Source: Phoronis australis (lineage: Eukaryota; Animalia; Phoronida). Taken from it: DNA of 64,000 bases. The position numbers were made by a program, and so were the translations under genes. Where the stretch lies: contig NMRA01000377.1 of the NCBI GenBank assembly GCA_002633005.1, positions 320,619-384,618 on the forward strand. Direction: 5' to 3'. The notes below the pieces were generated by a model. The model was not told the DNA's origin, made no database searches, and saw only the letters and a list, made by a program, of their open reading frames with translations. Positions within the stretch are counted from its first letter, which is position 1, and each line of letters begins with the position of its first letter. This document shows positions 12,054 to 60,819 of this stretch, in pieces.

Positions 12054-12101
12054 ATGACCTTGCTCTGGTTATTTTTACTTTTTGTATTTAATGAATTTCA
12101 G
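12054..12101 (+). CDS. Exon 1, signal peptide MTLLWLFLLFVFNEFQ
   Basis: Hydrophobic 16-codon ORF ending in a perfect CAG|gtaagt donor; phase 0 joins DVNA-KG (likely signal peptidase site). Confidence 0.75.
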
Positions 12102-15100: not shown

Positions 15101-18100
15101 AAAGGGCGACCTGAATAGGCATCATAAAAGTTATCTGGGGCTAAAAAAAACTTTAGAAGGTAGCTAACCTTCGGAGTAGTGAACCTTCGGTCATGTACTT
15201 GTAATCTTGGAAATCTTTTCCATCAAAATTGTTGCTCGTACGAAATCTGCGAAGCTGTGTACCATTGACATTGACTGACAAGAGAAGACTTTCTCCATTA
15301 AGTTTTAATTAGGTCAAGACTTACCTAATAATGTGAACATGCGGGGATTTCTCAGTGCAAGAATACACGGTAGCTAAATGTCTGAGTTTTGAGAAACGAT
15401 AGAGTAGTCAGTGAACTTACCGTCGGCGTGTACTGAATTTAATAGAACGGAAACGCACACACGTGTACACGCATGCATGTCAATCCACCAATCCACAATC
15501 AAAGTGGACACTTGATGATCAAGATATTTGGGGATCACTTTAAATTTCTAAATTTGAAAATGCTTGCAATTAATCCAAACTATGCTAGAAAGTACACCAA
15601 AGTAGCAAATATCAAACCCATTTTCTGCTGTTTTGTTTATCGCACTACATTTGGGTATCTCGCTCGATGCTATAAAGTTTGGGCTAGGCATAGACATTTA
15701 CTTCTAGACTTCTTTGTTACCCTATGGTGTAGACAGAGACCTAGCGCTATCAATGCCGATGAATAACATAAAACATCCTCTAATCGTCATATACGCAGTC
15801 ACCACTCGGGCCGGATACGACCCGATGATTATGTAAAGCGCTTATCATCAGAAGCAAATTCAAAATTACTATTAACTTATTTATGATTGTGGTTAGTAGA
15901 ACTTATAGTTACAACATTTTTTTGTCCATCTAGTAAACCCTATCTTATCCTCATTAGATAGGCACGGGCTGGACCTTTTCCTCGGAGAGGGGTTCCATCG
16001 AACCCCCGGAACCCCCCTGGCTACAGGGCTGCTAATGCGAATGCGAACCTAGAACCTTCGCGGTCACAATCATACTTAGAAATAACAAAAATTAGCAGTG
16101 ATAACAACAATAACAACAATGATAACAACAACAATAATAACTTATAAGAATAATGATAATAACAGTGATATTTGCAATAACATGTTTGAGTAATTATTGT
16201 TATTACTAATTATCCATGTTATTATAATTATTGCTGTCGCTGTTCTAGTTACTAATTATTATTATTATTATTAACAGCATAATAATTAATATTCCTTTAT
16301 CAACGATTATTGCTATTGCAATAATTATTACTACTATAACCACTTGGTATTATTATTACTATAACAATCATTATAACTACTATTATTACTAATTATTATC
16401 ATTACTTGTGGCGGGACAGGCTGCCGCCCATTAGTGCTAGTCACTATTCATATTCTGGTGTCAATTGTGACTTTGAGCTATTTGTTGGCTAGTTATTGAT
16501 AGGCAAATGCCCATGCTGGTTCTTTGGATACCGCGAGGTTTGAGTCAATCTTTTATCAGAGTTTGTGAAGCGTGGTTCATCGTTGACATACTTACAAAAT
16601 ACGATGAAAGTGCAGTCACTGGTCTTATTATTTACTTGTGAACTGATACTGTTTATGACCATCATCAAAGGAATGCCGACAAGTTTTCAGGGAGTTAGTC
16701 AAGGTGCAGAACAAAACGGTTTTCCAACTACATATATTAACTCAGTTGTTCAATAATAAACCTATTTCTTATATTTCGGGCACAAGGAATTCGTTCAGTG
16801 ACAGAACTTATGTTCAAAATGTGTAAACCTTTAATTATATTTATAGGACGTCAATGCTAAAGGAAAACTTCTTGTGAGCTTTCGGAATTTCAACAACCCC
16901 AAACACATCGCATTTGATCAGGACTGTTGTGACGGCGTGTTACTGGGAAGTGGGACATGTACTGGCACGTGTGATCCGGCGTTTGTATTGTGCATGGGAT
17001 GGAACGGCACGTAAGTGGAAACCAGAACAGGGTCCTCTTTCATAAAAAGACTACTTCTTTGTCATTGAGCATGGTGTTTCCAATGTAACTATCACAGCTG
17101 AGCAAAACACAGCATTTTTCGGACATACATAGTAAGCATACACTTCTTTATCAGCAAAAGAGAAATAAAATTGTCCAACGGGCAAGGTCTCTTTTATTTT
17201 CATCCTTGTTCTCTACGCTCTCTATCACATGTCCAAGGTAAAGAGGACGAGTGCACCCGGAACACCACGGGTATTTCGCAGCCTCAAATTTCCACTCGGC
17301 GGTACATTCATCTACGCATGTGCGAAATTCAGACATGCATTCGGTCATTCTCCAGTTTGGAGGTCACATGAATTAAGCCACTAAATGCACAGAGAACGTT
17401 CATCTACCAAGAGAAGGTTAAGGCTATGAAAATACACGAGTTGTTCTGGATGGGCCCAATGTTCTTTCATTCCATAAACTATTTCAAGCAAGTTACTTTT
17501 TACATTTTATTTCACTAGCATTGATATATTAAAATTAAAAAAAGATGACATTATTGTCCATAAATCGAATTTACATTATATCTGGGCATAAGTGACTTTA
17601 GCTGACCTGGCACGTCGATTTCCTCTGTGCTTGCACTTGCAAAGGAAACCTCATAGCAGACGCAACATACCAGGATGAGATCCTGCAGCATTCAGCAATA
17701 CCGCATGATTCACCGTTTACAACAGGCACGTAAGCAATGCAGTACATTACAATGCTCTGCGCATGCGTATAGAAGCACGTCATAAAAATTCCGCAACTTT
17801 CGTCATCTCTCTGCTTTAACAATGAAAAATCTACAATGAAGTTTAACATATTCTAAATTTCTGATAACCGGAAAAGTTGAATCACACTGAACTTCACTTT
17901 TGAGAAAATCGGAAAAAATAAAAAAACACAAACGGCTGTTTTCGAAGTTTTCTTGTTAATGATGTCTTTAACAAAAGACGGCATGAACAATCACGGATGT
18001 TTTAGCCATTCTCTGTTTCAGTAGCAGCGCATGTACCGGGGCAGGTCAGTTAGAAGCTGTTGAAGCTACAAACGAGAACTTCACGTTTGCTGACCAATCT

Positions 18101-21100
18101 AATGTCCTCATAGATTTTGAAGAGTGGAATGTAAGTATATTTATTATTGGGATAACTATGGAAATCCGGAACGGAAAATACTCCAGTACACACATTCTTT
18201 TTGCAAGACAAAAATATAATCAAAATCAAAATTTATCATGCCAGATCAGGACCAAAATTCAACACGTCAGATCCGAGAATTTATCACGCCAGGACAGAAA
18301 ATAAAAAAATTTATTACGTTAGGAAAATTTCACACGTCCGGAAAATTTTACACATCAGGAAAATTTTGTGAGACCACGTGACCATCCACAAGCACGTTAC
18401 CCCTCGAAGAGATGACGTAATGTGTACACAATGTCTAGCCGACGACAGTCATATTATCGTGACAATAATGTTGAATTTCTGTCGTCTCTTCCACGTTTTC
18501 CAACAGAAGCCAAATGTACACTTGGATACACTAGTCTTGAATACGACTGAGTTTTACAGACACAGCGGATCGTCATTGTCAGGTGGTCTCCTGGCATAAA
18601 ATTTTCTCCTGGCAAGAAATTTTCTCCTAGCCAGAAAGTCCATGTCCGGACGTGATAAATTTTGTGTCCTTGCTAGATAAACTATAGGTTCTGGATAGTT
18701 AAATTTTGGTTTTGAATCTATCTTTTGGTCATGCAGAGAATTTTATTCTCGAATAGAAAATTTGTGTCCTGGATTTTTCCGCGTTGGCTTTCCATAGATA
18801 AATAATTTGCTCATTGTTCAAGGTGTACTAATATACAAAAAATCTGCAAGGTCACAAATTCAACTGCAACAGATTGAGTAATTTAAAGATGAAATATATC
18901 AAGTTCTTTACCACATGGAGGCTCATGGTCCCTAGCTTTTGTACTCGATATCGAAAATATTTGTGACTTTTTCATTCTACTGACTATAGGTACTCGAGTA
19001 TAATATGGTTCTCTAATCCAATTTCTGACGTAAAAACTCAAAATTTCGTTTCAGATTTCGAGATTTTGAATTACAATAATCGAACTTGTAACTTAAAAAT
19101 GCTTGGGTCTTCAAATACTTACTAGGATTTAGAGAGTGATCCACGTAAGCTACTACATAATCACGCTCAGGATAATAGAAAATTATCTCGAGTTTGTACT
19201 AAGGTAGAACGGGGGTCAAAAAGAATTTCAAGTACTATGATTTGACACAGAGCCAGGACTGGTCTTTGGAATGAACCTAAAGATTTTTTGCATTGCGACT
19301 ACACTCAGCTAAAGTCTTTGTGACAAAAGTTTTTCGGAATATACATGAGCGCAAAATTGTAGAATTCTACAGTGATACACCCAAGTGAAAATTTTTAAGA
19401 AAAAATCCGAAAAATGCTCCGCAAAAAAGAATGCCATGGTTGGGGCTTACGCTTACTTACGTAAAAAAGCAAATTTGACTATCGTGCAAATTTTAGGCAG
19501 GAAAAAGATTTAAAGCATTTTCCTTAGTCCAGAACAAAAGACATTTTCCCAGTTTTATTATTAAACGTAGACTAAGAACTTCCATATAACTTTATAAAAT
19601 ATTTACTTGCGTCCCCACGGTAAAAGGTGAATGTTCATTCTCTTTAGATTGCATACTTTGGAGCTAAACATAAAATGAGCGCTGAGCCATTTTTGGTGAT
19701 TTCAATTATTGGGGACAAGTAAAACAACACAAGAATAATATGTTAAGTTGTATTGGGAATTTCAGGGTCACAGATCTACCTTAATTACAAGAGTTAACAC
19801 AAACATTTGAGGTACACAATGAGTAATTGGGTATCACAGATTAGTATAATACCAAATAGGTACTAATACCAAATGGGAAATGGCCGATTACCTACCAAGT
19901 TGGTCGAGCAAAACGGCAAATTCAATAATAAGTACCAAATGGGTACAAACTGCCAATGGGCAAATATTATAAAGTACCAAGTGGGTACACCAAACGGCCA
20001 ACTGGACTTAACAACCTGGCAAAGCAGGTTGCGCACAAGCTGAGGGAGCAGACGAGCCGGAGAGATAAAAAAGATATTGTAAGGAACGTGGTGTTGTGGC
20101 TTAGTTTGTGTCGAGAGATGTGACCGGGGTGGAGAGAGGCAATCCACAGTGACAGACGCTAAAGCGCAGTTTTGGTCGCTAACCAATGAAGTCTTCTCCT
20201 GCTTGACGGCAACGCGTTCCGGGCTTGAAGGAGGTACCAGCAGTGACTGTAATAAGAACTATAACCAGCAGCAGATTTTGTTCGACTCAGGGTAGGGAGG
20301 GTGGGATAGGTATATAACTGTTTCATTGCCGGAGATTTTGTTTAGCACCGCCTCACTGGAGTGAGATTAACTAAAAAACTTACTATTGTGTTACAGAATG
20401 GTGGGTGGTCTTTCCCTAAAGTTGTGTTAGAGAGCTGGATGGGAAAGTCGTTGTTAATATCTGTTGATAAGACAAAGTACAATATCAAAGGGTCCAAAAC
20501 TAAAGGAATGCCACCGTTTTTGTTTTTGTCCATTTGTCAACTCTGCCNTCACGACAGGCAGGACCAAAATTCAACACGTCAGATCCGAGAATTTATCACA
20601 CCAGAACAGAAAATTAAAAAAATTATTACGTCAGGAAAATTTCACACGTCCGGAAAATTTCACACGTCAGGAAAATTTTGTGAGACCACGTGACCATCCA
20701 CAAGCACGTTACCCCTCGAAGAGATTACGAAATGTGTACACAATGTCTAGCCGACGACAGTCATATTATCGTGACAACAATGTTGAATTTCTGTCGTCTC
20801 TTCCACGTTTTCCAACAGAAGCCAAATGTACACTTGGATACCCTAGTCTTGAATACGACTGAGTTTCACAGACACAGCGGATCGTTATTGTCGGGTGGTC
20901 TCCTGGCATAAAATTTTCTCCTGGCAAGACATTTTCTCCTAGCCAGAAAGTCCATGTCCGGACGTGATAAATTTTGTGTCCTGGCTAGATAAACTATAGG
21001 TTCTGGATAGTTAAATTTTGGTTTTGAATATATTTTTTTGGTCATGCAGAGAATTTAATTCTCGAATAGAAAATTTGTGTCCTGGATTTTTCCGCGTTGG

Positions 21101-24100
21101 CTTTCCGTAGATAAATAATTTGCTCATTGTTCAGGGTGTACTAATATACAAGAAATCTGCAAGGTCACAAATTCAACTGGAACAGATTGAGTAATTTTAA
21201 GATGAAATATATCAAGTTCTTTACGACATGGGGGCTCATGGTCCCTAGTTTTTGTACTCGATATCGAAAATATTTGTGACTTTTTTCATTCTACTGACTA
21301 TAGGTACTCGAGTATAATATGGTTCTCTAATCCAATTTCTGACGTAAAAACTCAAAATTTCGTTTAAGATTTCGAGATTTTGAATTACAATAATCGAACT
21401 TGTAACTTAAAAATGCTTGGGTCTTCAAATACTTAATAGGATTTAGAGAGTGATCCACGTAAGCTACTACATAATCACGCTCAGGATGATAGAAAATTAT
21501 CTTGAGTTTGTACTAAGGTAGAACGGGGGTCAAAAAGAATTTCAAGTACTATGATTAGACACAGAGCCAGGACTGGTCTTTGGAATGAACCTAAAGATTT
21601 TTTGCCTTGCGACTACACTCAGCTAAAGTCTTTGTGACAAAAGTTTTTCGGAATATACATGAGCGCAAAAATTGTAGAATTCTACAGCGATACACCCAAG
21701 TGAAAATTTTTAAGAAAAAATCCGAAAAATGCTCCGCAAAAAAGAATGCCATGGTTGGGGCTTAGGCTTACTTACGTAAAAAAGCAAATTTGACTATCGT
21801 GCAAATTTTAGGCAGGAAAAAGATTTAAAGCGATCTTTGTATTAGAAAATGTCGCTTTAATATTTCTGAAAAATTAATTATACATTTTCCTTAGTCCAGA
21901 ACAAAAGACATTTTCCCAGTTTTATTATTAAACGTAGACTAAGAACTTGCATATAACTTTATAGAATATTTACTTGCGTCCCCACGGTAAAAGGTGAATG
22001 TTCATTCTCTTTAGATTGCATACTTTGGAGCTAAACATAAAATGAACGCTGGGCCTTTTTTGGTGATTTCAATTATTGGGGACAAGTAAAACAACACAAG
22101 AACAATATGTTAAGTTGTATTGGGAATTTCAGGGTCACAGATCTACAAATAATTATTTCAGAGAAGATACCAGATGGGCACCTTAATTACAAGAGTTAAC
22201 ACAAACATTTGAGGTACACAATGAGTAATTGGGTATCACAGATTAGTATAATACCAAAAAAGTACTAATACCAAATGGGAAATGGCCGATTACCTACCAA
22301 GTTGGTCGAGCAAAACGGCAAATTCAATAATAAGTACCAAATGGATACAAACTGCCAAATGGGCAAATATTATAAAGTACCAAGTGGGTACACCAAACGG
22401 CCAACTGGGCTTAACAACCTGGCAAAGCAGGTTCCGCACAAGCTGAGGGAGCAGACGAGCCGGAGAGATAAAAAAGATATTGTAAGGAACGTGGTGTTGT
22501 GGCTTAGTTTGTGTCGAGAGATGTGACCGGGGTGGAGAGAGGCAATCCACAGTGACAGACGCTAAAGCGCAGTTTTGGTCGCTAACCAATGAAGTCTTCT
22601 CCTGCTTGACGGCAACGCGTTCCGGGCTTGAAGGAGGTACCAGCAGTGACTGTAATAAGAACTATAACCAGCAGCAGATTTTGTTCGACTCAGGGTAGGG
22701 AGGGTGGGATAGGTATATAACTGTTTCATTGCCGGAGATTTTGTTTAGCACCGCCTCACTGGAGTGAGATTAACTAAAAAACTTACTATTGTGTTACAGA
22801 ATGGTGGGTGGTCTTTCCCTAAAGTTGTGTTAGAGAGCTGGATGGGAAAGTCGTTGTTAATATCTGTTGATAAGACAAAGTACAATATCAAAGGGTCCAA
22901 AACTAAAGGAATGCCACCGTTTTTGTTTTTGTCCATTTGTCAACTCTGCCCCCATTCATCTGCCAATGCAGACTAACTTAAACTGACAGTCTGTTCTGAC
23001 CCATTATTTCAATTTTGACTCATTATTTTAATTTTGACCAAGTATGCCCATTCCCATCCATTCTATCCATTTTCACTAGTTAGACCATCACTCACTCGTT
23101 AAGTAGGTTTCATTTCAATCTAAAACTAAAGGTAATTTGTAGCACACATAGTTTTTGATCCATCATTTTGAAATGGACATTATAGGACAAAATGGACAGC
23201 CGTGGGTCAGTATATAGATATTTCTTTACAGGGTGATACACAAAATGGACAGCCGTGGGTCAGTATATAGGTATTTCTTTACAGGGTGGTACACAATTGC
23301 TGATAACTGCAGAAGACTATGACACAGCAACGACACAACTTATCGACAGGTTTGTCGTAACACACAAACAGGAAGTTTGTGATGAAAACGAGGCCGCCGC
23401 CATCAATAGCTGCAACACCATGGTCGCGACCGGAAGTCGAAAGAATCCTACCACGTAAGTCTCATTTTCAACAATTTAAAAATATCGTAGTGTAGTTCGC
23501 TGAGGAAACGACATATGCAAGAATTTATGTACTCGTTTATGTAGCTAGACTTTTTGCCACCTATTTCGATACATGTGAGTGCCCTGGCCTAGTGTTATCA
23601 ACATTCTGGGGACAACTAAGTCGTGCGGCATTCTCGAGTGTCTTCCCGAACCCTGGACGGACTGAAAAGGGTAAATAGACAATTAGAAGTTAAAAGAGAT
23701 ACCTTAGCAACGGCAGTTGTCTGGGGCTTACTCTTGGAAGTGGTACACTTCCACTGCCATAACTACTGTACCCCATGCGTTACGTCGCCTTTATGATAGT
23801 TTAAATCAATTAATTTGAAGCCGAAAACCATGAGCTTCTAAACTATAGGCGTACTTTAATGCCACTCAATTTTCCAGCGCATTTGCATATTGCGTGAAAA
23901 GCAGTGGCAAATGATTGGAGGCGATGTTTGCTGATGACTCAGACCGCGCCCCGTTTTGTTTCAGTTTGGAGATATGTATGGCGGCGTTCTGCGACAAGCA
24001 CTATTATACAGCCGACTGCTCCGTGTTGTGCGTTCCCCAGGACGACTGTTACGGACACTACACGTGCAACCAGACAACGGGCAGAAAGATGTGTAACAAA

Positions 24101-48100: not shown

Positions 48101-51100
48101 AATTCGACGTGAGTGGGTCAGATATTGCCCGTTTTACGCCACTGGCTCTTTCAGATTTTGCCTAATTTATCAACTCATTGACCCGTAGCCGGTTTTACAT
48201 TTAGTGCCTTTATCACATGGTTTATGTTTGTGATATTTTAGCGTTTCCTTAATTTTTGAAAATTTTCAAATTGACAGCAATTCATTAACGCTATGGTTAC
48301 ATAGCATTTTGTTCCCAATTAACAGTCGATTATTATTCTTTTGCTTTTTCAGATTGGAAGTTGTAATTATCAAGTACAACGTACATTTGGGCCTAAATCT
48401 TCACTCACTCAACATCTCCATCCCATCTCTTACCGACCTCCAGACGTCGCTTACATCAACGTCATCAACACTTAAGCTTTATATCGGTGACGAACCAGTA
48501 TTGGACCGACAGCTTTTTGAACTTAATATTTTGGGGCTCGTGAACCTGGAAAGCGTGAAACATCAATTGGAAATTGAAATAGCTAATTCGTGGAAAACAG
48601 TGTATGAAGGTACGTTGATTAAAAAAGGCATTCATTCTTATGCACTATACGGCAAGAGTTAAGGTTGAAAATCATCATAGATCTAAGTTGGTATATTTTT
48701 CCCAATTGACTCTTTTAAACATGTAAGTGTACTGTCATATAGTGCCACCAGTTTTCAAAAACGTTACATTAATAGTTCGCTTCCATTCAGATTTGAAGAC
48801 GTGTAGCTGCATCGAAGTCGTTGTGACGAAGGTTGATACACTATACGATGTTATGAGGTAGGTGCTCGGATTGATAGAGCTGTGAAGAAGCTTTGTACAT
48901 TTNTTTATCACATGGTTTATGTTTGTGATATTTTAGCGTTTCCTTAATTTTTGAAAATTTTCAAATTGACAGCAATTCATTAACGCTATGGTTACATAGC
49001 ATTTTGTTCCCAATTAACAGTCGATTATTATTCTTTTGCTTTTTCAGATTGGAAGTTGTAATTATCAAGTACAACGTACATTTGGGCCTAAATCTTCACT
49101 CACTCAACATCTCCATCCCATCTCTTACCGACCTCCAGACGTCGCTTACATCAACGTCATCAACACTTAAGCTTTATATCGGTGACGAACCAGTATTGGA
49201 CCGACAGCTTTTTGAACTTAATATTTTGGGGCTCGTGAACCTGGAAAGCGTGAAACATCAATTGGAAATTGAAATAGCTAATTCGTGGAAAACAGTGTAT
49301 GAAGGTACGTTGATTAAAAAAGGCATTCATTCTTATGCACTATACGGCAAGAGTTAAGGTTGAAAATCATCATAGATCTAAGTTGGTATATTTTTCCCAA
49401 TTGACTCTTTTAAACATGTAAGTGTACTGTCATATAGTGCCACCAGTTTTCAAAAACGTTACATTAATAGTTCGCTTCCATTCAGATTTGAAGACGTGTA
49501 GCTGCATCGAAGTCGTTGTGACGAAGGTTGATACACTATACGATGTTATGAGGTAGGTGCTCGGATTGAGAGAGCTGTGAAGAAGCTTTGTACATTTGTT
49601 GTGGTTATCTCGCGTTGCAAGTAAGCTTGTACACTTCCTTATCCGCACTTTACTTTAATAGGGGAAACTATACTGAAAGCAGAGTCACTTAAATCCGGGA
49701 GTCACATTTTAAAGGCTATGGCTAACTTTATTAAACACGACGTAAGGAAATTGCGTGGTTTCTCGCCACCTGACCTCACATCTATATTGGGATCTGACAA
49801 AAGTCTTAAAGAATGCCCCTCTAAGGTATGACTGTCATCCGATTTCAGAAAAGACATATCGCAGGTATCATATCTGGTTCGCATTAATCGCACGGTCGTT
49901 GAGCCTGAACAAAGATTGGCACCACCAGTTAATAAGACCAAACTGACAGGATACGAGGTCATCAGCGTTATACCCAGTCAGATACGAAACTACAAGGACT
50001 CCTACAGCCTCTTCCTGACTGGCTTGGTCAGTGGACAGATTGTCGACTCTGTGGTGTCTTCACTGAATTCAACATGGGAAACAGTTCGTAAGGGTAAGCC
50101 ATTATTAAAGATTTTCAAGAATAAAGCGATAGTATGCGTTACCTGTCTTGTTATTGGTGGCTTTCAAATTTTCTTGACGACAGTCGTCGGAAATGTCGTG
50201 TTCATAAATGACATCAATAGGGCGACTCCGAAGATCTGAGCACAAAAAATTACCAATCGTACTCGATACCTTTCGTTTTCGGTTTTGGTGAATTTAAACT
50301 CAAGTCTGTACAAGTCGCATTTAAGAGCCGGTTTGTGTTGAACATGCGTTGTTCTCTCCAAAAGAATTTCAATTGAAAATTGTCAGATTAGCTATGTAAA
50401 GCACTTTGATATTTGCACTGCCGTCTGTTTATGCTCATCTTGCAAAGAAACAGCAACGTGTATACATGGCTTCCTGCAATACTGCCCAGTAACGTCTTAT
50501 GAAGTGCATCTGCGTAATATATTCTTCCACATATCACGCTGAGGGTACATCTTTTTCTTACGCTCTAAGTGTAACTCACTGGTTCGAGAGCTGTGTTCGT
50601 GACAATCACAGCTTACTCGAGAATCCACTAGAAAACTATTTGATCACATTTCGTAAACACACTTAAAACCAGGCAAAGGATTTTAAACCGAGTCTGGAGT
50701 GACGTTCGGTTATCCGAAGTCCCTGGAATATTGTCGCTTTCATGTCGAATAACTGAAGATTTTTTTTTTTCAGATTACGAGAGCTGCAAATGCTTTAACT
50801 TGGAAGTTGCCCAAGTTGGCAAGTTTGTTAATTCCAAAGGGTAAGTGCGGTTCGTACACTGAACAATGTATTAAAAAGAGCAGATACTACAAGTCGTTAT
50901 TGTCAAATGCGTACTAGATACAAGAATGTCTGCTAGGCACGGAGATTTTTAAATTTTACAACACTTGCAAAGGAATGATCATGTTTTAACCAAAACATGA
51001 GCACGAACTTTAAAATTAGAACGTAAGTAAACAAAGACATATTGATCTGACGTTTTGGCTAATTCGCTATAAACCATTTTCAAGCAAAGATTCACACTAT

Positions 51101-54100
51101 TGACTAATGTGAGCTTTTGTCTTGAGAATGATTTGTAGTGAATAAAGTTTGTAAGGGAATGGACGGAGAAAAGTGCTAGAGTAACAGAGGAGAGCTCTGC
51201 TCATTGACGGGAAAATGGCAATGCTAATACATGTTTCACCAATGGTTAAAGGCACTGGAAGTTCAAAAGGCGAGATTGGGCATAACGGTTTTGAGTTAGC
51301 CTTTAGGAATGGCACGATTTTGTGTTTTTGTTTTTTCAGGAAAGATGTGTCGCGAATCCGATACTTTGTGGTAGTAAACCAAACTGTTGTGTCGTCAAAG
51401 CGAGAGGTTCCTGGTGCGTCCTTCCAGCAACTAATCGAGGAGAAAATAACCGATCTTCAACTACGTGACGTTTATGGAGAAAAGTTGTCAGTATTGGGCA
51501 AGACTGAAATCTCTCAACTTCAAAGCATCAGCGATCTTAAGCAAGTCTTTGTTAAAGGACGCGTGGCGGATCGAAACATCAAGGCACTTAAAGCCGCCAT
51601 ATTGAACGCTTGGAACAAAGTATTTGGTAGGTCAGGTCTTTTGACACACACTTTAAGTAACAATGATGAAGTATTAATCTTGCTTTACCTGAAATTATTT
51701 TGAAACTTAAATTTTTAGTGAAATCTACAAAGTCGTAGGCATAGCGGATATTATGGGACAGTCCAGTTTTGGTGATCTCCAAATAACATCAAAACTATTG
51801 ACTGGTTGATTAATTCGAAGAAGACTACTGTTCAATCATCTTTTTTAGTAATTGCACCACGTTGTTTTTTCCAGGTCTTGTTGATGTTAACGTAATGAAG
51901 ACAAAGACATTTGTAGATAATCGTCGGTGAGTAGAGTCAACGTTTTCTGGGCCATTTATTTCAGCATTGAAACTGCTTTTAAAATGAGGGATGTTTCTAA
52001 TTGCACGTTTTGAGATTTTACTTCTTTAGCTTGTCATGTCTTTTTAGCGGTGTCATCACCTCTTTGGAGTATTCAGTGAAAAATGCTACCACCAACGCAT
52101 CGATCGTAGAGAACGAGAACACAACAACAGACGTGCAGCGGCAACTGGAAATCGCAATCTCCTCCGTGAATCATACCAGGGGAGATAAGTACCAAGTGAC
52201 GACTCTGGATCCTTCAACGTTAGGGTCACTTCAACCGTACAACCTACACTACTCACTCTTTATTGTGGGCAAGATCTCTCGTAGCGACCTCTCTTATTAC
52301 AAAGAATCTTTGAGATCCGCTTGGTTACTGGAATATCCAGGTAACTTTTAAAGCGCCTACTGTTACTTTTTGATGTTGTTATGTTCTAAACTGATTAGAT
52401 TAATCATGCAGTGATCTTTCTGAGGTTCTGTTAAGTCCGCAGAAAATTAACGCCGGATCTCATGATTCACAAAAAAAAACAAATATTTTAAATAGATTTC
52501 CCAGTAGCGCCTTTACCATACTGTGTAAACCAACTTTGTGCGACTGTGAGCCAATGAAATTCCAGGATCGCGCATAACTGGATGTTATAACATTACGTAC
52601 TGCATTGAGTTCGAACTCTTATCACGGAAAATTTAATAGCGATTGAAGAAAACAAACAAATGGAAAAAATAGTAAGAGCGATTAAAAAGTCAGACACCAA
52701 TACTTAACTAACATCATCACCATCACCATCACCATCACCATCACCATCATCATCACCATCACCATCATCATCATCATCGGGCATCTATTGCAGTCTTCCA
52801 GTCGTTTTGTTGAAAGGTTAAATCAATGCTAACAACCAATGTTGTACTTCTTTAGATTTGACAAACTGTGGCTGCAACTTCACAATGGAATTTGGTCCAC
52901 TGGAACAGTACGTTGGCGAGTTCAACTCTGAAGTTACTAAGATCACTTACTGGGTGAAACGAGACAACGTCTTTGAATCCACGTTTACTCTCGCTGAACC
53001 GGCGCCCAATGAGTTGGAGAACGTCGTGAAGTCGTTTGGCGGCGCGTATGGTGTATACACCGGTACAGCTCCATCACCTATGACCGTGCAGTACTCGGTG
53101 GATGTCCTCGGAACCCTGCAATATTCAAACATTGTCACCATCATACAGGGCCTGAATCAGTCTTGGTCAAATTATTGTAAGTCAACAGGAATTCTTCCTT
53201 CGCTGATTCATAGGCGTTTCAATGAACTGGGAAGTGACAAAGTAAATTAGATTGCTGGAGGCTGTTCCAGTGCATAAAAGTAATGTAGTCGACGACTGAT
53301 TGTCAAAACACTAGCAAGTACTCTGCGGAGGTTTCAAAGGAAATAGCATATACGTACTGGAGTCTATGTCTTACATTCGAAGAAAATCTTACCCCAGCTA
53401 TTGGTTGTCGTATTTCCTTGAGTTGTAAATATCACGTTCTTTTTTCAGTGAAGACTGAATGCAACGACTGTGCAGTACAAGTAAAAATTGGAAACAGCCG
53501 CAGCCTTCTTACATTGTCAAGGTAAAGACAACCTTTTACCTTGGATAGTCCTCTGCTAATGGCTAAATGTATCCTAAGCAGTTGCCCCACAGCAGGCTAT
53601 CACTGGTCTTAGGAATTGTCTTTCATGTTTTGTTGCTATGATGCGTGCTGATAGTTCTACTGTACACTGTGTTGCTATGATGCGTGCTGATAGTTTTACT
53701 GTACACTGTGTTGCTATGATGCGTGCTGATAGTTCTACTGTACACTGTGTTGCTATGATGCGTGCTGATAGTTCTACTGTACACTGTGTTGCTATGATGC
53801 GTGCTGATAGTTCTACTGTACACTTTGTGGGTCAAGATTGCCTTGGTTGCTTATCCTGATGATGACTTATGAGACATCAAAACGTGTTGAAGTGGAAACA
53901 TCTCGTTGTTTTATTAATAGTCACATACTTGTCTTCGGTGAGACCAGTTAACAATACCGGTTTCTAACAAACTCGGAGAAGAACAAATGACGAAAGTATT
54001 CCCACATGCGTTTTACTTGCCGATGTAGGCAGTGCTGGCTAAACATACTCCGTTCTGAAGTTACAAAAACTGTTCCGCATTTATTCACATTTTGGACATC

Positions 54101-57100
54101 GGGAAATGAAAAATTGACCTGCCTAATTGTTTATGATAATTTTCTGTGTTTCAGGCAAGCGAGCACACGTCTTGTATATTCCGTGCTTGTCAACGGAGAA
54201 GCCATTGATGTTAAACCTCCAACTAATGACCAAATCAAAAATGCTGTAGAGAGCGTTGGATTCAATGTCTCGACTGCGGTCAAATTGGACATCCAAGAAC
54301 TTACTTTGGACGGAAACCTCGTGTTAGAGCAGGTTGACAAAGTTGCAACAAGCATTGAAACAACATGGAGCAGCACCGTAAAATCATCTTCCGTCGCCGT
54401 AAACGTGGTTTCAACTGAAACATTCGTTAAAGAAAACAAAAGGTAATTTATTTTTTTGGTAAAACTGTGATATTTTAGAACCTCGCCAAAAGATACCATT
54501 TTTAACATACCTCTTCATTTGCTTTTTCGTTTCGTATTCAATTTCCAGCAAGCACAAGTGGCTTTGCGACAATCAGTATTCTTGTGTACGTTATGCCCTA
54601 GGAGAAAAATGTTCATCCATTTAAATTCTTTTTCGTTCTTTGTTCTAGCCCCGCAACGAAACTTAAGTTTGCTGTAACGGTGAACGGTACAAGTCCCCAG
54701 GACTTGACCACCGTTGTTGCTCCGCCTGAATCATTAATAACTAAGAACATACAGAATGCTACTGATATCAGCCCGTGCGGCTGCGCGGCCAGAAAAGTTC
54801 ACAGCCTCGTTGTAAAGAGCAGTTCTGTAGTTACCAGCAGAGCAGTAATCGCAGAAGGTATCTCTCAGGCATGGAGAACTGCAAACTCCCCAGGTGAATT
54901 TTTTTTTTCAGTTTCAGCCCATATGTTTTCACATATTTTAGTGGCTCAGGAAACACTTTCATTAGTTGACAAGCGTTTAAAATATTTGATTGAGGAGTTG
55001 AAATAACTTAATCAAAGTAGCATCTACTTAAGTTCATTTCTTGTGGCTATCCTTCGCACGAAAACAAGTGCGAGTATAGATTTCACTTTAAAGGTGTAAC
55101 GATCAATTGGTAGTTCATTCTTTAGCTAACGGGCTCGCATGGTCCTTTTTTCATTGTAGATTTCAATCTTACCGGCTTTGTCGTCGATGTCGTCAGTGTG
55201 GACAACGGCCTAATTGACACGGCAAGGTAAATGGAATTTAAATAGCTGTAGAAATTACAGCCTACTTTTTGTCGCTGAACTGCTCTGTATAGAAGACACA
55301 TTTAGTTTTAAAAACCTCTATGCGGTGATTCCAAAGTGAAAGAGGACTGTTATATACGTGTTGCCTGATTTTATTTTTCTTGCTTTTTTAGCAATGCCCA
55401 GACACAACAGCGGGTCAGGCGAAGTATTCGAGGAAGACGTGCTGACGAACCTGCGTGAGTGTTTGGCTATGTTAACATATATCAAAATGTAGCCGCTTCT
55501 ATTATAAGTACACAGTATTGCTGAATTTGCAAGGCTTGAACTCCAAGTGTACATGAGATGCAGGCCTAACTAATACAGGATTCCGTCCGTGTTGAAAAGA
55601 AAAATTATCGCAAAAAGTTGTTGGGTAATTACGCCGAAAATCGTCTGGCTTCGTTGAAGTTATGTCGTAATACACAAAAACAGACGAACAATAACGCTCA
55701 ACTTATATTTGGAAATTAAGCAGAAAAGTTTGCTTCGAAATTTTGTGTCTGCAACATGGATTGAATTATAATAATCTTTGATCTGGGCCATCATAGGTCA
55801 GTTTTCAAACTTTACTTTCAAGCATTATACAGTTTTGACTGAACCCATCATAACGTTTACTGGCGTGATTTGCTTCACTATTTATCATTATTCAGGGTAA
55901 CGAAGATCGATTATATCGCTGGCATTAACAACATGGACTCGAGTTTACTCATGATACAGCAGCCGTCGACAGTGGAGCTATCAAAGCAACTTGGAACGGA
56001 AGTGTGCACTGACTGCGAGGCCAGCCGGGTTTATATGTTCCATGCCAACTCGGCACTGAAAGCTATGGATAACAAGGACATCCAAGCTGCTCTAAAGACC
56101 GCTTGGGAAACCGTTAACTCAGGTAAGGATACTTGTGCCAGCTGACCAGCAGAATAATTTGAATTCAGTTATTGCTAGGAATGTCCTCATGCTCTGCAAT
56201 AAATGGGATAACTAGCCCTTTTCAGAAATCTGCAAGGATTTTATCATTTCGAGTTATGCACTTTGGTACACTGTGAGTTACAAATGAATAAGGGAAATGA
56301 CATCTGTTGGAATCTGACATTGGTTTGGATAAACTTGCACTAGTTGAAACGGACAACGAAGATTGATTATTGTAAATCTATTGCCAAAATTGGTTCTGGG
56401 GAAGGACGACTTCAATCATTACATTTTTCTATCGCCGCTTTACATTTTCAGGTGTTGCTAACTTGACTGTTGGTGCTACGGTGTCGTCCAAGGAGAATCT
56501 TTACGATAAGAAAGGGTGAGTTTGCTTAGAACGTTCACGTTTTGTTTCTAACCTACGCACTTGAAATCTTATACCTCCCGCAGTACGTTAACAGTTTCGT
56601 GACAGCAATAAATTCACAATGTTTCTATTCGAAGTGTTTCCCAATTTTTCGATGCTGTCATACACCATCAGGGAGTCTGTCATCCATCACAGCAATCAAC
56701 TTTTGCTTTAGACATCTTACTCTTATAAAATTGGTCTCAATGTTTCCTTAGTCAAATTTTAGATGGTTTAAGGACTTCAAAAGACGTGATGCATCTACCT
56801 CGTTATTGTTTTAAACACGAATCTTTAAATTGGCTTGACACAGCATGTCATTTTAAGCACAGACCTTGATCTTAACGATTAACAACCCTAAATGACTTCT
56901 CATCTGAAGAACAAACAGGTAACTAGTAGTTTTAATCAAACGTTCACTCCTTGTACGGAATGCTGATTTACATACACTTTAAATGCAATATCATTACAGT
57001 CAAGTACCAATGCCGAATACGTTAAATCAAAATTGGAAAACCCATTACCCTACTCTCTGTGTTTCGTGCTCTTGATTACATGGCCGTTTCATTTGAAAGG

Positions 57101-59565
57101 TCAACTTTCCTTTGTCTTTTCAAGAACATCTCTATCCACGTACATGTATCGTTTTCAAAGAAGTACCGTCCACATGTATACGCTACAGCAACCGAAAACG
57201 TCACTTTTTCTGTACGCTCTGAACACAAATGAGGGAACACCAAAGTTTTTGAGATGTTGCGTTTTCGCCCGCCAACAGGCCCCCTAAAACGATGACGGTG
57301 TCAGCTTTTCTAAAAGTTATTTTTTGGGTTGTGATACGTATGGACACACGTCCTATTCCCAAAACGTTTACTTTTTGTTAAAAACTTCATCTCGAGATTT
57401 GGTTTTGCTTGTCAAATCCAATGGATACGTGCAGGTTAGACGTCGAAAGCTGTATCCGTAAAGAAAAATGATGGTGTCAGTGGACAGGGGGTCAATTACG
57501 TTGCAAACTTAAAATCTAAGAGCCAATAATTTGAACATGTATTGGTTAAGTTATCACGAAATAAATGTATCATTTGGCAAACTTAATTAGCTAGGCTATT
57601 ATCTTTTCTTGCAGCAATGATATTATACGAGTGCAGTACACAATTCGACCGACAGCTGGCGGTGTGGCGCAGTCAGAAGATAGGTTAATAGCACCCTCTG
57701 ATGACGAAATAGAGAAAAGTTTGAAGTTAATCGACCCAAATGTCGAACTCTTCCAAGGAGATGTTTTCAAGACTAAAAATAAAGACAAATTCATACCATC
57801 AATAACTAACGTATGTAATTATTCAAAAACAATAATTTTAATCATTGTACTGTTAAGAATTTTTTGAAGCGGCTGTAAACTTGTCTTCCATCTGCTGTCT
57901 GTAATCGAATTTGTCTTTTTCTCGTATAGAACTCGGTCTCATAATACTCCTGATCGTGAGTAGAATCCCATTTTCATGATGAACCCCAGTCAAAGGCAAT
58001 GGGTTTCTTGTGCCATTTTTGAAGCGTTTTCTTGGGTCGCTATCTTTTCGATGTTCTTGTTGGTAAACGAAATGGAATCCAGTCAGGGTAAAGAGTATTA
58101 TGACGTAGTTTTAGTCAGCTTAACAGGGTCAAATGTAACTTCAAGCTCCTAAACTAGTGCGTAAAGACTCTTTTTACTTCAGGGAATTACGAAAGGCATA
58201 ACATGTATATCCTTTAAACGTCACAGATTTACACATACATGTATTCCGTAAGGAAAGTATACGTTCGTAATTTAAGCTCTTACATAATGGTCAATAGTTA
58301 ATATACTCTCATATCCTACTACAGCTATGTAGTTATGTGACTGAGTTTTACCTGGCTTAACAACGATGCTTCAGAAGCCCGATTGACATTGTTGTACTTT
58401 GAGTTCCCGATTGAAAGACGTGTTTACCGACCTCCTTAAGTAAAGCACTTGCTCAGTATTGATGTAGTGAAAACAATTAATAAAAATTCAAACTTTGTCT
58501 TCCAGGAGCCATGGTTCTGGCCCGTTGTGATCGCTGTCGGCGGACTGCTTCTCATTCTTATTGTCGTGCTTGTAGTGAATGCATACAGACGATACGGCAG
58601 GTAAGTTTACTTCGCGAGCGGAAAGTTAGTGTGATGAAGTGCTTCGCTTGCATCGCCTGATGATCTCTTGATTAAGTTGCGCCATCTGGCTTATCTCGCG
58701 GCAGCCTTGCTCCACTCAACGTGGTGCAAATTTTGTCAAGTCAAAGCGACTAACACACGTCAAGCTGAATGAAATCAAATTATAGGATCCAAATTGCGAT
58801 CCTGAACGGTCAATGGATTTCATTTGTTTCACTGAATTATGTTTTAAAACTAGGAACGGTCATTTAGTCACATTATTAAAAATCGAAACGAAGGGATCCA
58901 CCCCGAAAAGGAACAAAAACAATCATGATTTTTGAAGAAATTGATGTAGGTGGCTTTAAGCCTAGTTTAACACGCGTTTGGCAAGAACACTCAAATCTTC
59001 GCGAGATAACGCCACGTGTTACGTACATTAAGTAAACCACGTCATAGCACTAACTTTCACTCGCGAGTGTCTTGTGTTACGAAACTGGCATTGTGGTTGC
59101 ATTATTACAGTTAAATTTATTTCGAATAAATTGAAAATCTTGATATCCTTAAGCTCTTGAAAATATTTCCTGCAGGGTTACGTAATGGGTATACATCTTC
59201 TCTGCTGTTCTTTTGCACAAGTTGACAATTATCTTCTGCATAAGTTGACAATTTTTAAAAACACAGTATTTCACATTTCTGGGATTTTCAAAATTGAATC
59301 GTTTTTTTGTCGAGGGACCACAGAAGATGTGCCACGCCTCTAAATCGTGAAAATAGTATGTAAGGGATTGTTTACATGCCACTAACCGTTTTTGTTGCGA
59401 ATTGAATGCTGCCGTGTGCTTTTAATTCTTCTGTTTTTACTTTACAGACAAAAATCTGCTCTGTCTGTCAGTCAAACAGATTTCAGAGAAGAAATCGATT
59501 TCACGTATGCAAAGGCAAGGGCATTCGAGGCTTCTAATCCAATGTACACCTCTTTAGCTGTTTAG
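12054..59565 (+). CDS. Giant Delta/Serrate-like type I membrane protein: signal peptide - MNNL(C2) - DSL - EGF - ~29 SEA-like repeats with Thr-rich mucin spacers - TM - NPxY tail (~54 exons, ~4,000 aa)
   Basis: Apart from the two gap-interrupted exons, all exons have GT-AG boundaries with continuous phase: 12054-12101, 16847-17010, 18022-18130, 23285-23454, 23965-24158, 25036-25339, 26041-26282, 27883-27934, 29067-29429, 29697-29926, 31458-31509, 31628-32218, 33197-33435, 34043-34094, 34702-35058, 35300-35520, 35964-36018, 36199-36993, 38100-38332, 38458-38512, 38753-39220, 39759-39991, 40117-40171, 40412-41115(gap), 41655-41887, 42013-42067, 42308-42775, 43317-43549, 43675-43729, 43973-44124(gap), 44183-44415, 44551-44605, 44868-45485, 45634-45872, 46817-46868, 47197-47862, 48353-48609, 48791-48857 (redundant copies 49048-49304, 49486-49552), 49849-50093, 50774-50840, 51340-51626, 51875-51926, 52048-52340, 52856-53176, 53449-53521, 54155-54442, 54649-54893, 55160-55226, 55392-55454, 55896-56122, 56452-56515, 57615-57810, 58506-58600, 59448-59565. 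Confidence 0.88.
13683..16031. mobile_element. Non-autonomous DNA transposon-like element (hAT-like CAG..CTG termini) in intron 1
   Basis: Left CAGGCCCGTAGCCAG and right CTGGCTACAGGGCTG (reverse complement CAGCCCTGTAGCCAG, 13/15 match); both ends carry GGACCTTTT and ggggg..ttcga/tcgaaccccc motifs; no clear TSD, no transposase ORF. Confidence 0.55.
16081..16405. repeat. Low-complexity (AAT/AAC)n then (ATT)n degenerate microsatellite
   Basis: Runs of ataacaacaat followed by attattatt/actattatt. Confidence 0.75.
16847..17010 (+). CDS. MNNL/C2 domain exon (Notch-ligand N-terminus, part 1)
   Basis: KGKLLVSFRNFNNPKHIAFDQDCCDGVLLGSGTCTGTCDPAFVLCM matches the Delta/Jagged G..F.N..CC.G..C..C..F..C pattern; not in the ORF track. 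Confidence 0.85.
18022..18130 (+). CDS. MNNL/C2 domain exon, part 2 (SSACTGAG..NFTF..NVLIDFEEW)
   Basis: gtttcag acceptor, gtaagt donor, phase 2 to 0; matches the C..G..N.F..N..i.F..W pattern of Notch ligands. Confidence 0.8.
18156..18797. mobile_element. MITE-like element (~640 bp) with imperfect TIRs and inverted subterminal repeats; partial second copy at ~20561-21110
   Basis: Left ctatggaaatccggaacggaaaatactccagtacaca vs right reverse complement ctatggaaagccaacgcggaaaaatccaggacaca; ggaaaattt repeats on the left and aaattttctcctgg on the right; ATAA on both flanks. Confidence 0.65.
18249..22950. repeat. Gap-flanking ~2.3-kb duplication (18249-20547 vs 20561-22950), probably two haplotypes
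   Basis: Near-identical copies on both sides of the N at 20548, differing by SNPs and indels (extra segments near 21831-21883 and 22147-22180 in copy 2). Confidence 0.85.
23187..23295 (+). repeat. 53-bp tandem duplication covering the splice acceptor of exon 23285
   Basis: acaaaatggacagccgtgggtcagtatatag(a/g)tatttctttacagggtg(a/g)tac occurs twice. Confidence 0.85.
23285..23454 (+). CDS. MNNL/C2 domain exon, part 3 (GGTQLLITAEDYD..LIDRF)
   Basis: tctttacag acceptor, gtaagt donor; matches the G..Lii.A.D..LI.R motif. Confidence 0.85.
23965..24158 (+). CDS. DSL domain exon
   Basis: CDKHYYTADCSVLCVPQDDCYGHYTCNQTTGRKMCNKGWTGEHC has the DSL cysteine spacing plus the YY, DD, GHYTC and GW.G..C hallmarks. 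Confidence 0.93.
25036..27934 (+). CDS. EGF domain + repeat module 1 (exons 25036-25339, 26041-26282, 27883-27934)
   Basis: C..FGCLNDGQCVPYLNSFYCCCKPGWKGPLC EGF-like repeat, then a Thr-rich linker, two beta/alpha repeats and the EYKECSCL micro-exon. Confidence 0.88.
29067..31509 (+). CDS. Repeat module 2 (exons 29067-29429, 29697-29926, 31458-31509)
   Basis: Phases 2-2, 2-1, 1-2; YYVVVNET / LENAW / SWENAY / EYKNCSCL. Confidence 0.85.
30927..31233. repeat. Degenerate minisatellite with 49/39-bp units
   Basis: Repeating aaaata-cc-gaggtgttccggatg core with or without the ataatttgaggccacg tail; about 7 units. Confidence 0.75.
31628..34094 (+). CDS. Repeat module 3 (exons 31628-32218, 33197-33435, 34043-34094)
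   Basis: Long Thr-rich spacer; ILVAW / EAWLTTFP / QYKNCGCL. Confidence 0.85.
34702..36018 (+). CDS. Repeat module 4 (exons 34702-35058, 35300-35520, 35964-36018)
   Basis: YFVLVNGT / IMTAW / LWEETY / ELKGCGCV. Confidence 0.85.
36199..38512 (+). CDS. Repeat module 5 (exons 36199-36993, 38100-38332, 38458-38512)
   Basis: Longest S/T spacer (~180 aa); LLESW / VWELRYP / RYIQCSCL. Confidence 0.85.
37471..37545 (+). pseudogene. Truncated degenerate copy of a module domain exon (pseudo-exon)
   Basis: aattgcttctcagtgtcgac..tggaaattctggtaactggtgttttggtgactg aligns to the acceptor and 5' part of exon 38100 and then breaks off. Confidence 0.65.
37590..44124 (+). repeat. Recent tandem array of ~1.66-kb units, each with three exons and their introns
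   Basis: Exon starts 38100/39759 (1659 bp apart) and 41655/43317 (1662 bp apart); introns near-identical between copies; gaps at 40695 and 44125 may hide further copies. Confidence 0.9.
38753..44605 (+). CDS. Repeat modules 6-9 (near-identical copies; two exons interrupted by assembly gaps)
   Basis: YFVLENNTVIDPR..ILVESW / YNVEIL..VWELRYP / YIQCSCLEIKIV repeated; frames intact except at the N positions. Confidence 0.8.
44868..46868 (+). CDS. Repeat module 10 (exons 44868-45485, 45634-45872, 46817-46868)
   Basis: Mucin exon with an internal 147-bp duplication; LVDAW / HNWQVTYP / EYKNCDCF. Confidence 0.85.
45974..46095 (+). mobile_element. Possible decayed tRNA-derived SINE fragment
   Basis: ggtctcgagtccc resembles a Pol III B box and is followed by cccttgag as in many SINE bodies; heavily diverged. 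Confidence 0.3.
47197..48857 (+). CDS. Repeat module 11 (exons 47197-47862, 48353-48609, 48791-48857)
   Basis: YFVIANGT / IRLAW / NSWKTVY / DLKTCSCI. Confidence 0.85.
48209..49597. repeat. Gap-flanking ~695-bp duplication (48209-48902 vs 48904-49597), likely assembly artefact
   Basis: Essentially identical copies on both sides of the N at 48903, duplicating two exons. Confidence 0.8.
49849..57810 (+). CDS. Membrane-proximal block of ~7 divergent SEA-like repeats without mucin spacers (14 exons)
   Basis: Each unit keeps the strand / helix ending in W (NSTW, LNAW, RSAW, NQSW, ETTW, SQAW, KTAW) / strand / Y-x-V strand / P pattern; phases continuous. Confidence 0.8.
52712..52778. repeat. (CATCAC/CAT)n microsatellite, intronic
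   Basis: catcatcaccatcaccatcacc...catcatcatc. Confidence 0.9.
53631..53825. repeat. 39-bp minisatellite, 5 copies, intronic
   Basis: tgttgctatgatgcgtgctgatagttctactgtacactg x5, near-perfect; explains the repetitive ORFs 53623-53859. Confidence 0.95.
55392..55454 (+). CDS. 63-nt symmetric micro-exon encoding (S)NAQTQQRVRRSIRGRRADEP(A), two furin consensus sites
   Basis: Long polypyrimidine tract + tttttag acceptor, GC|gtgagt donor, phase 2-2, open in the required frame. Confidence 0.7.
58506..58600 (+). CDS. Transmembrane exon EPWFWPVVIAVGGLLLILIVVLVVNAYRRYGR
   Basis: Hydrophobic helix followed by basic stop-transfer residues; tcttccag acceptor, CAG|gtaagt donor. Confidence 0.9.
59448..59565 (+). 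CDS. Terminal exon, cytoplasmic tail QKSALSVSQTDFREEIDFTYAKARAFEASNPMYTSLAV*
   Basis: tttactttacag acceptor, phase 2 continues the TM exon; NPxY motif; TAG at 59563-59565. Confidence 0.85.
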
Positions 59566-60813
59566 TAGTGATTTTAGACAAGTATGAAATATATGTATAT
59601 GCTCAAATTTATTAAAGATACTCCTCCGTCGTTTTCATCAATTTTAAACACATAATGAGTCTCATCAATACTAAGATATAACTGAGTTCGAACTATACAT
59701 GTACCCTGCGATAAATTGCGGTCTTGTACAATTAGTTATAAGTATGAATTATTTAGACGTCTTGAACAGTGAAGTTTAATTTTCTACGATTCAATCTATG
59801 GCTGCCTCTCTGTTGGTGTACCACCCGAAATTCTAATAGTGTACGTTTTATATTGAATGTTGTATATTTTGAGATGTGCCAAAGCTCGTGTCGGGAAGTG
59901 TTTATCTGTAGCGGTTAAGTCTCTTTAATTTGTGATGTGCAGTATGTTTGTAAACAGCGCAAGATAGTCCCTCAGGATCAGCACGCTTTCGCCATTTCAT
60001 TTGAAAATTCCCGCGAGATTACCTTGTTATCAGATGAATGTTTGAAACTGAATGAACTGAGATGTTTACAATTCTCTTTTGTAGTATTTGGTTTTGAACA
60101 GGTAAAATGAATTGTACACTTCATCTCAGTCTTAGTGTTTGTCTTTGTCTTGTTGACTGTTTACATTGTGGACCTGTGACTTGAAGTCGTTTTTGCTGTT
60201 TTTGACCGCACCTCCGATCTGTATTGCGTTATGTGTACAGTGCGTATGTTACTTAAAATATTTTATGCTCGATATGCATAACTTTTGTAAAAATTTAAAA
60301 CCTGACTTACATGTTATGTCGACTTTGAGATTTCTTCGCCCGCAATCTAATCTCAGAACTCGGAACTATCTTGTTTTTGAATTGTTCTTAGTAACCTTTG
60401 GAATTAAGTGTATGCATAATCCAAATTTGTACTTGATGACCCTGCCTGAATTCGAGTCATGATTTTAAAGACGCTAAAGTCAACACGTTCAAATTCAAAT
60501 GAATCCAATTAGAAGCTGTGACTTCTCCCTATTAGTGAACATCTCTCTTGATTTCAAGCTTTTACACATTTATTTCTTTGAAAGCAGGAATTGACTTGAT
60601 ATTATAATTGTGCGATTTAAATGATTTATATTTTTGTATGAATATTTGTGTACAAATGATTAGAATAGACGCTTCTTTCCGCGTCTAGATTTTTACGAAT
60701 TTGACTGGGGTATACACCGATACAGCGATTATCCAACTAATTTGTTTAAGACATGTAGCTTTTATTTATTAAAAGTTTCACCTGAAATGTTTAATATTGG
60801 CAACTTATGTACT

Positions 60814-60819
60814 AATAAA
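60814..60819 (+). terminator. Candidate polyadenylation signal of the DSL-mucin gene
   Basis: AATAAA followed ~15 nt later by a T-run; no transcript evidence. Confidence 0.35.

Follow-up and report, generated by a model that had tools for sequence, protein, structure and literature searches.

Between positions 12054 and 59565 on the plus strand of the 64,000-nucleotide stretch of Phoronis australis DNA analysed here (the window), we read a chain of 56 exons that runs from an ATG at 12054 to a stop codon at 59565 and encodes, in order, a signal peptide, a C2/MNNL domain, a DSL domain, a single EGF domain, 27–30 repeats of about 100 amino acids (aa) with Thr/Ser-rich spacers, a transmembrane (TM) helix and a tail with an NPxY motif. 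It is very likely that this chain is one gene, because the EGF domain shares exon 6 with the first repeat and because eight database proteins join a DSL domain, the repeats and a TM helix. Judged from its sequence, the product is a variant within an unnamed family, already predicted in spiralian genomes, of proteins that combine the DSL family with tethered SEA proteins. Two of its features are new in this analysis: a furin-type motif in the penultimate repeat, and a DSL domain without either of the Notch-binding arginines.

Gene model, assembly breaks and transcripts

The window was read over its whole length by six-frame translation, a splice-site scan and a check of exon phases. AG was present at all 55 internal acceptors and GT at 54 of the 55 donors, the single exception being the exon at 43973-44124, which is cut by the gap N44125. 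The exon boundaries that the sequence-only reading had given at 24158/25036/26041 and at 57810/58506/59448 were identical in the rebuilt model. That reading had also described a continuous phase-compatible chain of about 3,700 aa with about 29 repeat copies. Phases are indeed compatible elsewhere, but the chain is broken at two assembly breaks, N40695 and N44125, and a literal join of all 56 exons runs into a stop at aa 1860, because the exon at 40412-41115 contains a 235-bp overlap duplicate (97% identical) at N40695 and the exon at 43973-44124 is cut at N44125. In addition, 48209-48905 and 48904-49600 form a 697-bp duplicate of 99.7% identity across N48903, with two exons inside it, and this repeat segment is probably an assembly duplicate. 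Four treatments of the breaks and duplicates gave open frames of 3,545, 3,653, 3,797 and 4,051 aa. The two breaks and the probable duplicate therefore leave the protein length only bounded, at 3,545–4,051 aa, and the earlier figures for length and copy number hold only within this range (27–30 repeats), which is set by the treatment of the assembly.

The assembly has six single-N joins here, several with duplicated flanks. N3870 is flanked by a near-identical duplicate of 533 bp (97.9%) and N20548 by one of about 2.3 kb (96-99%); the duplicated flanks at N3870, N20548, N40695 and N48903 are typical of unmerged contig overlaps or haplotypes. Upstream, at about 170-6183 on the plus strand, lies a multi-exon TPR gene with a long acidic tail at its end, the last exon of which matches Pfam TPR_12 (7.9e-11). 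Repeats within introns include a CATCAC microsatellite (52712-52778), a five-copy array of 39 bp (53631-53828) and a two-copy array of 137 bp (30904-31206), and intronic stretches such as 46148-46811 and 51020-51141, where reads have loose ends, resemble interspersed repeats.

Three raw-read RNA runs carrying the same species label were compared with 16800-36790 (together with one contig run) and with 41500-61400, at low depth. Ten GT-AG joints were listed, nine of which connect predicted adjacent exons, so that 9 of the 55 predicted introns are confirmed by RNA and 46 are without such confirmation. All nine lie in the stalk and tail (36018>36199, 44605>44868, 53521>54155, 54442>54649, 55454>55896, 56122>56452, 56515>57615, 57810>58506 and 58600>59448). 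The remaining GT-AG joint, 42775>44183, either skips one near-identical unit or is a product of multi-mapping; the joints 42064>43970 and 46420>46457, which lack GT-AG ends, were left uncounted. For the junctions singled out beforehand as checks on the chain, the outcome was split: 57810>58506 and 58600>59448 were confirmed, but the comparison with 16800-36790 yielded no joint within the head or between head and stalk, 24158>25036 and 25339>26041 included, where depth was near zero and most bins of the head held no reads. The orientation of the reads fits plus-strand RNA in a usual stranded library. Reads run about 1.2 kb beyond the stop, over a likely 3' UTR at 59566..60820 (depth 9.5-15 in run X3 across 59428-60755; poly(A)-signal hexamers at 60768 and 60814).

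Repeat stalk, furin motif and tail

Behind the head, exons 7-18 (26041..36993; RNA joint 36018>36199) encode diverged repeats in a three-exon cycle composed of an exon of about 230-240 nt, a CxC micro-exon of 52-55 nt and a long exon with a Thr/Ser spacer. Exons 19-30 (37579..44124), which hold N40695 and N44125, arose by recent tandem amplification, within the gene, of a unit of two repeats and about 1.7-1.9 kb, whose copies are 92-96% identical by self-BLAST, introns included, and 94-97% identical as proteins. Because these units are near-identical and RNA depth in run X1 peaks among them (5.0 at 42164-42827, against 1-2 elsewhere), further copies may be collapsed here, or copy number may vary between individuals. 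Exons 31-38 (44183..48857; RNA joints 42775>44183 and 44605>44868) add more repeats with Thr/Ser spacers, exons 39-40 (48904..49600) are the probable assembly duplicate, and exons 41-50 (49849..55226; RNA joints 53521>54155 and 54442>54649) encode membrane-proximal repeats without mucin spacers. The diverged and the membrane-proximal repeats were recognised with the repeat HMM. Over the N-terminal two-thirds there is an alternation of full repeats with shorter ones that bear CxC and lead into a Thr/Ser spacer. Thr/Ser-rich segments amount to about 1,055 aa, Thr and Ser make up 23% of the protein overall, and there are 74 NxS/T sequons.

Each repeat carries a tryptophan in a helix, and pairwise identity is mostly 10-40%, the recently amplified block being the exception. 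A repeat HMM built solely from homologue domains, which had themselves been chosen with a window-derived HMM, found 27 domains in model C of the protein and 30 matches in model D, and zero matches in 20 shuffles or the reversed model; a repeat array had been described in the sequence-only reading. The repeat exons gave no Pfam match above cut-off, and Pfam SEA (PF01390) matched neither the exon pieces nor the full-length homologues. Autoproteolytic mucin SEA domains carry a GSVVV-type motif, for which neither model C nor any of four long homologues gave a match.

The fold of the repeat was modelled with AlphaFold on a homologue, P0028, which is about 21% identical to the window protein, from alignments of 21-22 rows. 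Its repeats were predicted as βαββαβ units, with a mean pLDDT of 83 for a model of three domains and 90.6 for one domain. When compared with 48,161 solved chains, the single domain gave as its best 11 rows PCDH15 MAD12 (three rows), CELSR1, a nuclear-pore chain, MUC16 SEA (three rows), TMPRSS6, GPR126 and a dystrophin-complex chain, at Z 6.1-6.9 and rmsd 2.8-3.9 over 80-94 of 100 residues, and several of these rows we take to be SEA-like domains. The three-domain model reached Z 8.0, to PCDH15. Unrelated ferredoxin-like folds lay within 1 Z of the SEA-like rows (MscS, Z 6.0). Foldseek returned generic ferredoxin-like matches and no SEA match. A search of the ESM Atlas with P0028 gave only leads under 0.9 (SEA at 0.86, collectrin and CD34), and one with a window exon gave no usable match; when the stalk profile was run against PDB sequences, its matches were confined to TM, EGF and low-complexity segments. 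In the homologue model the repeat has the ferredoxin-like βαββαβ arrangement of a SEA or SEA-like domain. We consider the repeats likely to be SEA-like domains, and put it no higher than likely because the Z scores are moderate and tied with those of unrelated ferredoxin-like folds and because Foldseek gave no SEA match.

Near the membrane, the 63-nt micro-exon 51 (55392..55454; RNA joint 55454>55896) carries the only R-x-K/R-R motifs in model C (RVRR..RGRR), 176-182 aa before the TM helix, and within the penultimate repeat this furin-type motif falls in the predicted β2-β3 loop. Exons 52-54 (55896..57810; RNA joints 56122>56452, 56515>57615 and 57810>58506) complete that repeat and encode the last one. 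The motif occurs in 7 of 20 homologues, in the same loop and 176-180 aa before their TM helices, and is absent from the other 13. All seven belong to one of two clades in a tree of the C-terminal region (20 rows), in which the window protein sits on a long branch and groups with the motif-lacking clade (99/99), a placement that is weak and unreliable. The motif in the window may therefore be an independent gain, since its holders all fall in one clade and the window falls, weakly, with the other. KIAA1549 and Notch are both documented cases of a SEA-like domain that furin cuts, and in KIAA1549, where the furin site lies inside such a domain, a furin inhibitor blocks cleavage, according to the accessible text of PMC13570299.

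Exon 55 (58506..58600; RNA joints on both sides) encodes the strongest hydrophobic segment of the protein (Kyte-Doolittle value 3.23; the next is 1.68), and exon 56 (59448..59565; RNA joint 58600>59448) a 46-aa cytoplasmic tail with NPMY, two lysines and the stop codon, in agreement with the TM helix and NPxY tail proposed earlier. The strict NPxY occurs in 5 of 20 homologues, and the tail motifs ExF and NPxY/FxNxxF are kept across the family.

The head and its predicted relatives in spiralians

The C2-DSL-EGF head named by the sequence-only reading was recovered in a Pfam search with 18 single-exon pieces of the gene, in which MNNL (6.6e-5, 16847-17008), DSL (7.5e-15, 23966-24157) and EGF (1e-4, 25038-25337) all scored above their curated cut-offs. 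Exon 1 (12054..12101) contains the ATG and most of the predicted signal peptide, and ends at a GT donor in phase 0. The C2 domain starts in exon 2 (16847..17010) and continues through exon 3 (18022..18130, placed by phase, with alternative in-frame acceptors at 18025 and 18028) and exon 4 (23285..23454, with a few RNA reads in the bin 22803-23469), both of which align with the heads of homologues. Exon 5 (23965..24158) encodes the DSL domain together with the first EGF cysteine, and exon 6 (25036..25339) encodes, in a single reading frame, the rest of the EGF domain with its CCC motif, a short Thr run and the first half of repeat 1. The EGF domain is single and carries an extra cysteine.

By PDB sequence alignment, the best solved-structure matches of the DSL domain are Dll1, Jagged and Delta. 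The Notch-binding face of Jagged1 consists of F199/R201/R203/D205/F207 (described in PMC3415683), and in the same alignments these positions are L/V/Q/D/Y in the window, with neither arginine present. The accessible text of PMC5538765 reports that R203K alone abolishes Notch binding by Jagged1, and that the C2 domains of Notch ligands bind lipid. Across the family, none of the 7 N-terminal DSL domains examined has either arginine, Phe is found at the F207 position in 0 of 14 listed motifs, and an extra cysteine occupies the F206 position in 13 of the 14. The window model contains no EGF1-EGF2 (DOS) pair. In a metagenome scan with the DSL exon we obtained one distant DSL fragment (38%).

To find relatives, a profile of 15 window repeat exons was searched exhaustively against 1.84 billion representatives. 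Word-index searches with a single repeat exon or a repeat alignment had no homologue to offer among proteins of up to 2,000 aa. The profile search gave 38 matches. A whole-domain window HMM picked up 32 of them again, and the other six were left out. Four of the six are evidently unrelated (BspA, CHU_C, Ig and CHAT/TPR); P0005 and P0023, the latter short and only weakly matched by BLAST, were also not recovered by the HMM and remained unused. The named homologue set consists of profile matches, cluster members and the result of one further search.

Eight database proteins, all of them spiralian gene predictions, combine a DSL domain with the repeats and a TM helix. Seven are molluscan: Patella KAK6195844.1 (3,634 aa), Potamilus KAK3591160.1 (3,590 aa), Saccostrea LOC133190156 (3,593 aa), Haliotis rufescens XP_048255349.1 (3,543 aa), Aplysia XP_012936519.1 (2,750 aa), Biomphalaria XP_013079301.2 (2,760 aa) and Mizuhopecten XP_021363915.1 (1,252 aa). 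The eighth is from the annelid Owenia (CAH1774350.1, 3,394 aa). Database labels of the relatives read "uncharacterized", hypothetical, "Delta-like protein" or "jagged-1b-like". Marks of the family are the extra DSL cysteine, an EGF of the CCC type, a conserved tail and, ahead of the last repeat, a CxC linker. To its homologues the window protein is about 20-25% identical in the stalk, 31-38% in the head and 23% at best in the C-terminal region, where it forms a long branch.

The long forms of Patella, Potamilus, Saccostrea and Haliotis rufescens, with 26-27 detected repeats each and the furin motif, resemble the window protein in both respects, but their Thr and Ser lie mainly in one block after the head, whereas the window protein disperses its spacers between repeat pairs. 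The long molluscan proteins P0002, P0003, P0048 and P0064 have a probable beta domain of about 120 aa between EGF cysteines 1 and 2. The window lacks this domain, for which Pfam gave no match. Short homologue forms differ in having several DSL/EGF units and about 5-6 repeats. Because P0021 places the repeat beside an LDL-receptor class A domain and P0012 beside a stretch that is C-type-lectin-like by eye, the repeat may be a mobile module. In P0016, P0024, P0029, P0034 and P0037, short ORF calls have both their ends at points of the repeat where the window's exons of about 240 nt also begin and end, hinting that intron positions within the repeat are conserved across genomes. The expectation that automated annotation would fragment such a gene proved true in some genomes, where homologues are stalk-only fragments, but not in all.

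The layout had been called unrecognised. Within the open literature, including searches with six locus identifiers, we found no description of a DSL head joined to a SEA-like array, though supplements or the SEA survey PMC5326570 could mention members; the same layout is, however, already predicted, unnamed, in molluscs and an annelid. The literature covered, in its accessible parts, includes PMC10970066, PMC7850063, PMC2770060, PMC8166818, PMC5356439, PMC12166595 and bioRxiv 2025.03.09.642222.

Set against Delta and Serrate/Jagged ligands, the protein shares the signal peptide, C2/MNNL, DSL, EGF and single TM helix, but has one EGF domain instead of 8-16, lacks the Notch-binding arginines, a VWC domain, a DOS pair and an ATEV/PDZ end, and bears extra cysteines in DSL and EGF and a stalk of about 3,400 aa, SEA-like and mucin-like by prediction, with a furin motif. 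As Delta is defined in the accessible text of PMC5356439 (signal peptide, MNLL, DSL, TM and intracellular domain, and at least nine EGF repeats), every part is found here, the signal peptide by sequence, except the EGF number. The at least 16 EGF repeats and VWC of Jagged/Serrate contrast with one EGF and no cysteine-rich juxtamembrane domain, and the L/V/Q/D/Y face departs from that of canonical ligands. The protein does fit the catch-all "DSL-like" class of PMC5356439, having a DSL domain and an additional conserved domain, the repeat kept in molluscs and the annelid. Other non-canonical invertebrate proteins of the DSL family, namely the "Delta-like" and "DSL-like" classes (PMC5356439), the repeated-DSL genes of Nematostella (PMC2770060) and AnNLL (PMC7850063), are set apart by their descriptions, which in the accessible text speak of fewer EGFs, repeated DSLs or a Hint domain and mention no SEA-like array.

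Possible functions and significance

We lean, without great confidence, towards a furin-cleaved and endocytosed surface glycoprotein of the tethered-mucin type with a repurposed C2-DSL tip, and away from an ordinary Notch activator, because both Notch-binding arginines are absent and there is only one EGF. Like tethered mucins, the predicted product is a type I membrane protein that has Thr/Ser-rich segments, and the likeness to MUC16, MUC1 and KIAA1549 extends to the likely tandem SEA-like domains: KIAA1549 is described as having three, with a furin site (PMC13570299, in its accessible part), and MUC16 SEA is among the best fold matches. The window protein differs in having no Pfam SEA match and no GSVVV-type motif, and none of the three has a C2-DSL head. 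In the proposed mechanism, a giant type I membrane glycoprotein would have a stalk that combines predicted SEA-like domains with Thr/Ser spacers, the latter presumably O- and N-glycosylated (74 sequons). Furin would cleave the β2-β3 loop of the penultimate repeat, near the membrane, to leave a non-covalent heterodimer whose large ectodomain could be shed by force or proteases, and NPxY would direct endocytosis through PTB adaptors. By analogy with tethered mucins, the protein would be located at epithelial surfaces, where the C2-DSL-EGF tip would probably serve as an adhesion or capture module that binds lipid or a partner other than Notch EGF11-12. Such a tip was one of three functional options in the sequence-only reading and is the one we favour; the option of a long-range Notch ligand is weakened by the lack of R201/R203 equivalents and of a DOS pair. 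Retention of C2 and DSL across several phyla could equally mean a Notch-related role.

The strongest competing explanation, which we hold to be rather unlikely, is an unusual Notch ligand or modulator with a re-tuned interface, displayed at long reach or shed by furin, that activates at a distance, inhibits in cis or acts as a soluble decoy. The order C2, DSL, EGF is kept in the window and in the homologues of seven molluscs and one annelid, the solved structures closest to the DSL domain are those of ligands, and the NPxY and two lysines of the tail could support endocytic pulling. Of the two sites of Notch contact, moreover, the DSL site is described as varying more from ligand to ligand (PMC5538765), and variation at these residues is reported for the ligands of medusozoans (PMC12166595), in the accessible text of both. 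Against this stand the loss of both arginines in all seven N-terminal DSL domains, the lack of Phe at F207 in all 14 motifs, and a single EGF domain with an extra cysteine and no DOS-type pair, which in four mollusc homologues is interrupted by the insert of about 120 aa. A broader and speculative proposal, which we also regard as improbable, is that an ancient, unnamed giant-DSL family with a Notch-like furin-cleaved SEA array reaches across the glycocalyx to signal to Notch-type partners or to sense them, with distance set by the number of repeats and a head that can be shed as a modulator.

We think it distinctly improbable that the protein is instead a receptor, in which the furin-cleaved juxtamembrane SEA-like pair would act like the Notch heterodimerisation domain, a pull on the DSL tip exposing a protease site and leading to release of, or signalling by, the short tail. 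As in Notch and KIAA1549, it is a juxtamembrane SEA-like domain that holds the furin motif, and several SEA-like domains can replace the proteolytic switch of Notch (PMC6586460, accessible text). The Notch2 NRR is a weak match of the fold search (Z 4.7, rank 50), and the ExF and NPxY/FxNxxF motifs are conserved across the family; the tail, however, is just 46 aa long with no recognised signalling domain, and there are no LNR-like shielding modules. A very improbable alternative is that two adjacent genes, or a mis-joined model, encode a short secreted C2-DSL protein and then a separate SEA/mucin membrane protein, as the lack of an RNA joint across 24158>25036>26041 (at near-zero depth), the single-N joins and the stalk-only homologues would allow, but the junction of exons 5 and 6 falls within the EGF domain, which shares exon 6 with repeat 1, the stalk lacks a separate signal peptide, and DSL and repeats stand in single predicted proteins in eight homologues.

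Notch ligands are described in the literature, as far as its accessible text goes, as C2-DSL heads on EGF stalks. Here a C2-DSL head stands on about 27-30 predicted SEA-like domains, the fold of Notch's own cleaved switch. These repeats make up a family for which Pfam has no model, and bivalves, gastropods and one annelid share the layout. Such proteins inflate the counts of "Delta-like" and "jagged" genes in invertebrate genomes and are probably not canonical ligands. The family offers a test case for a C2-DSL module without the Notch-binding arginines, and its members in Aplysia, Biomphalaria, abalone and oysters bring it within experimental reach.
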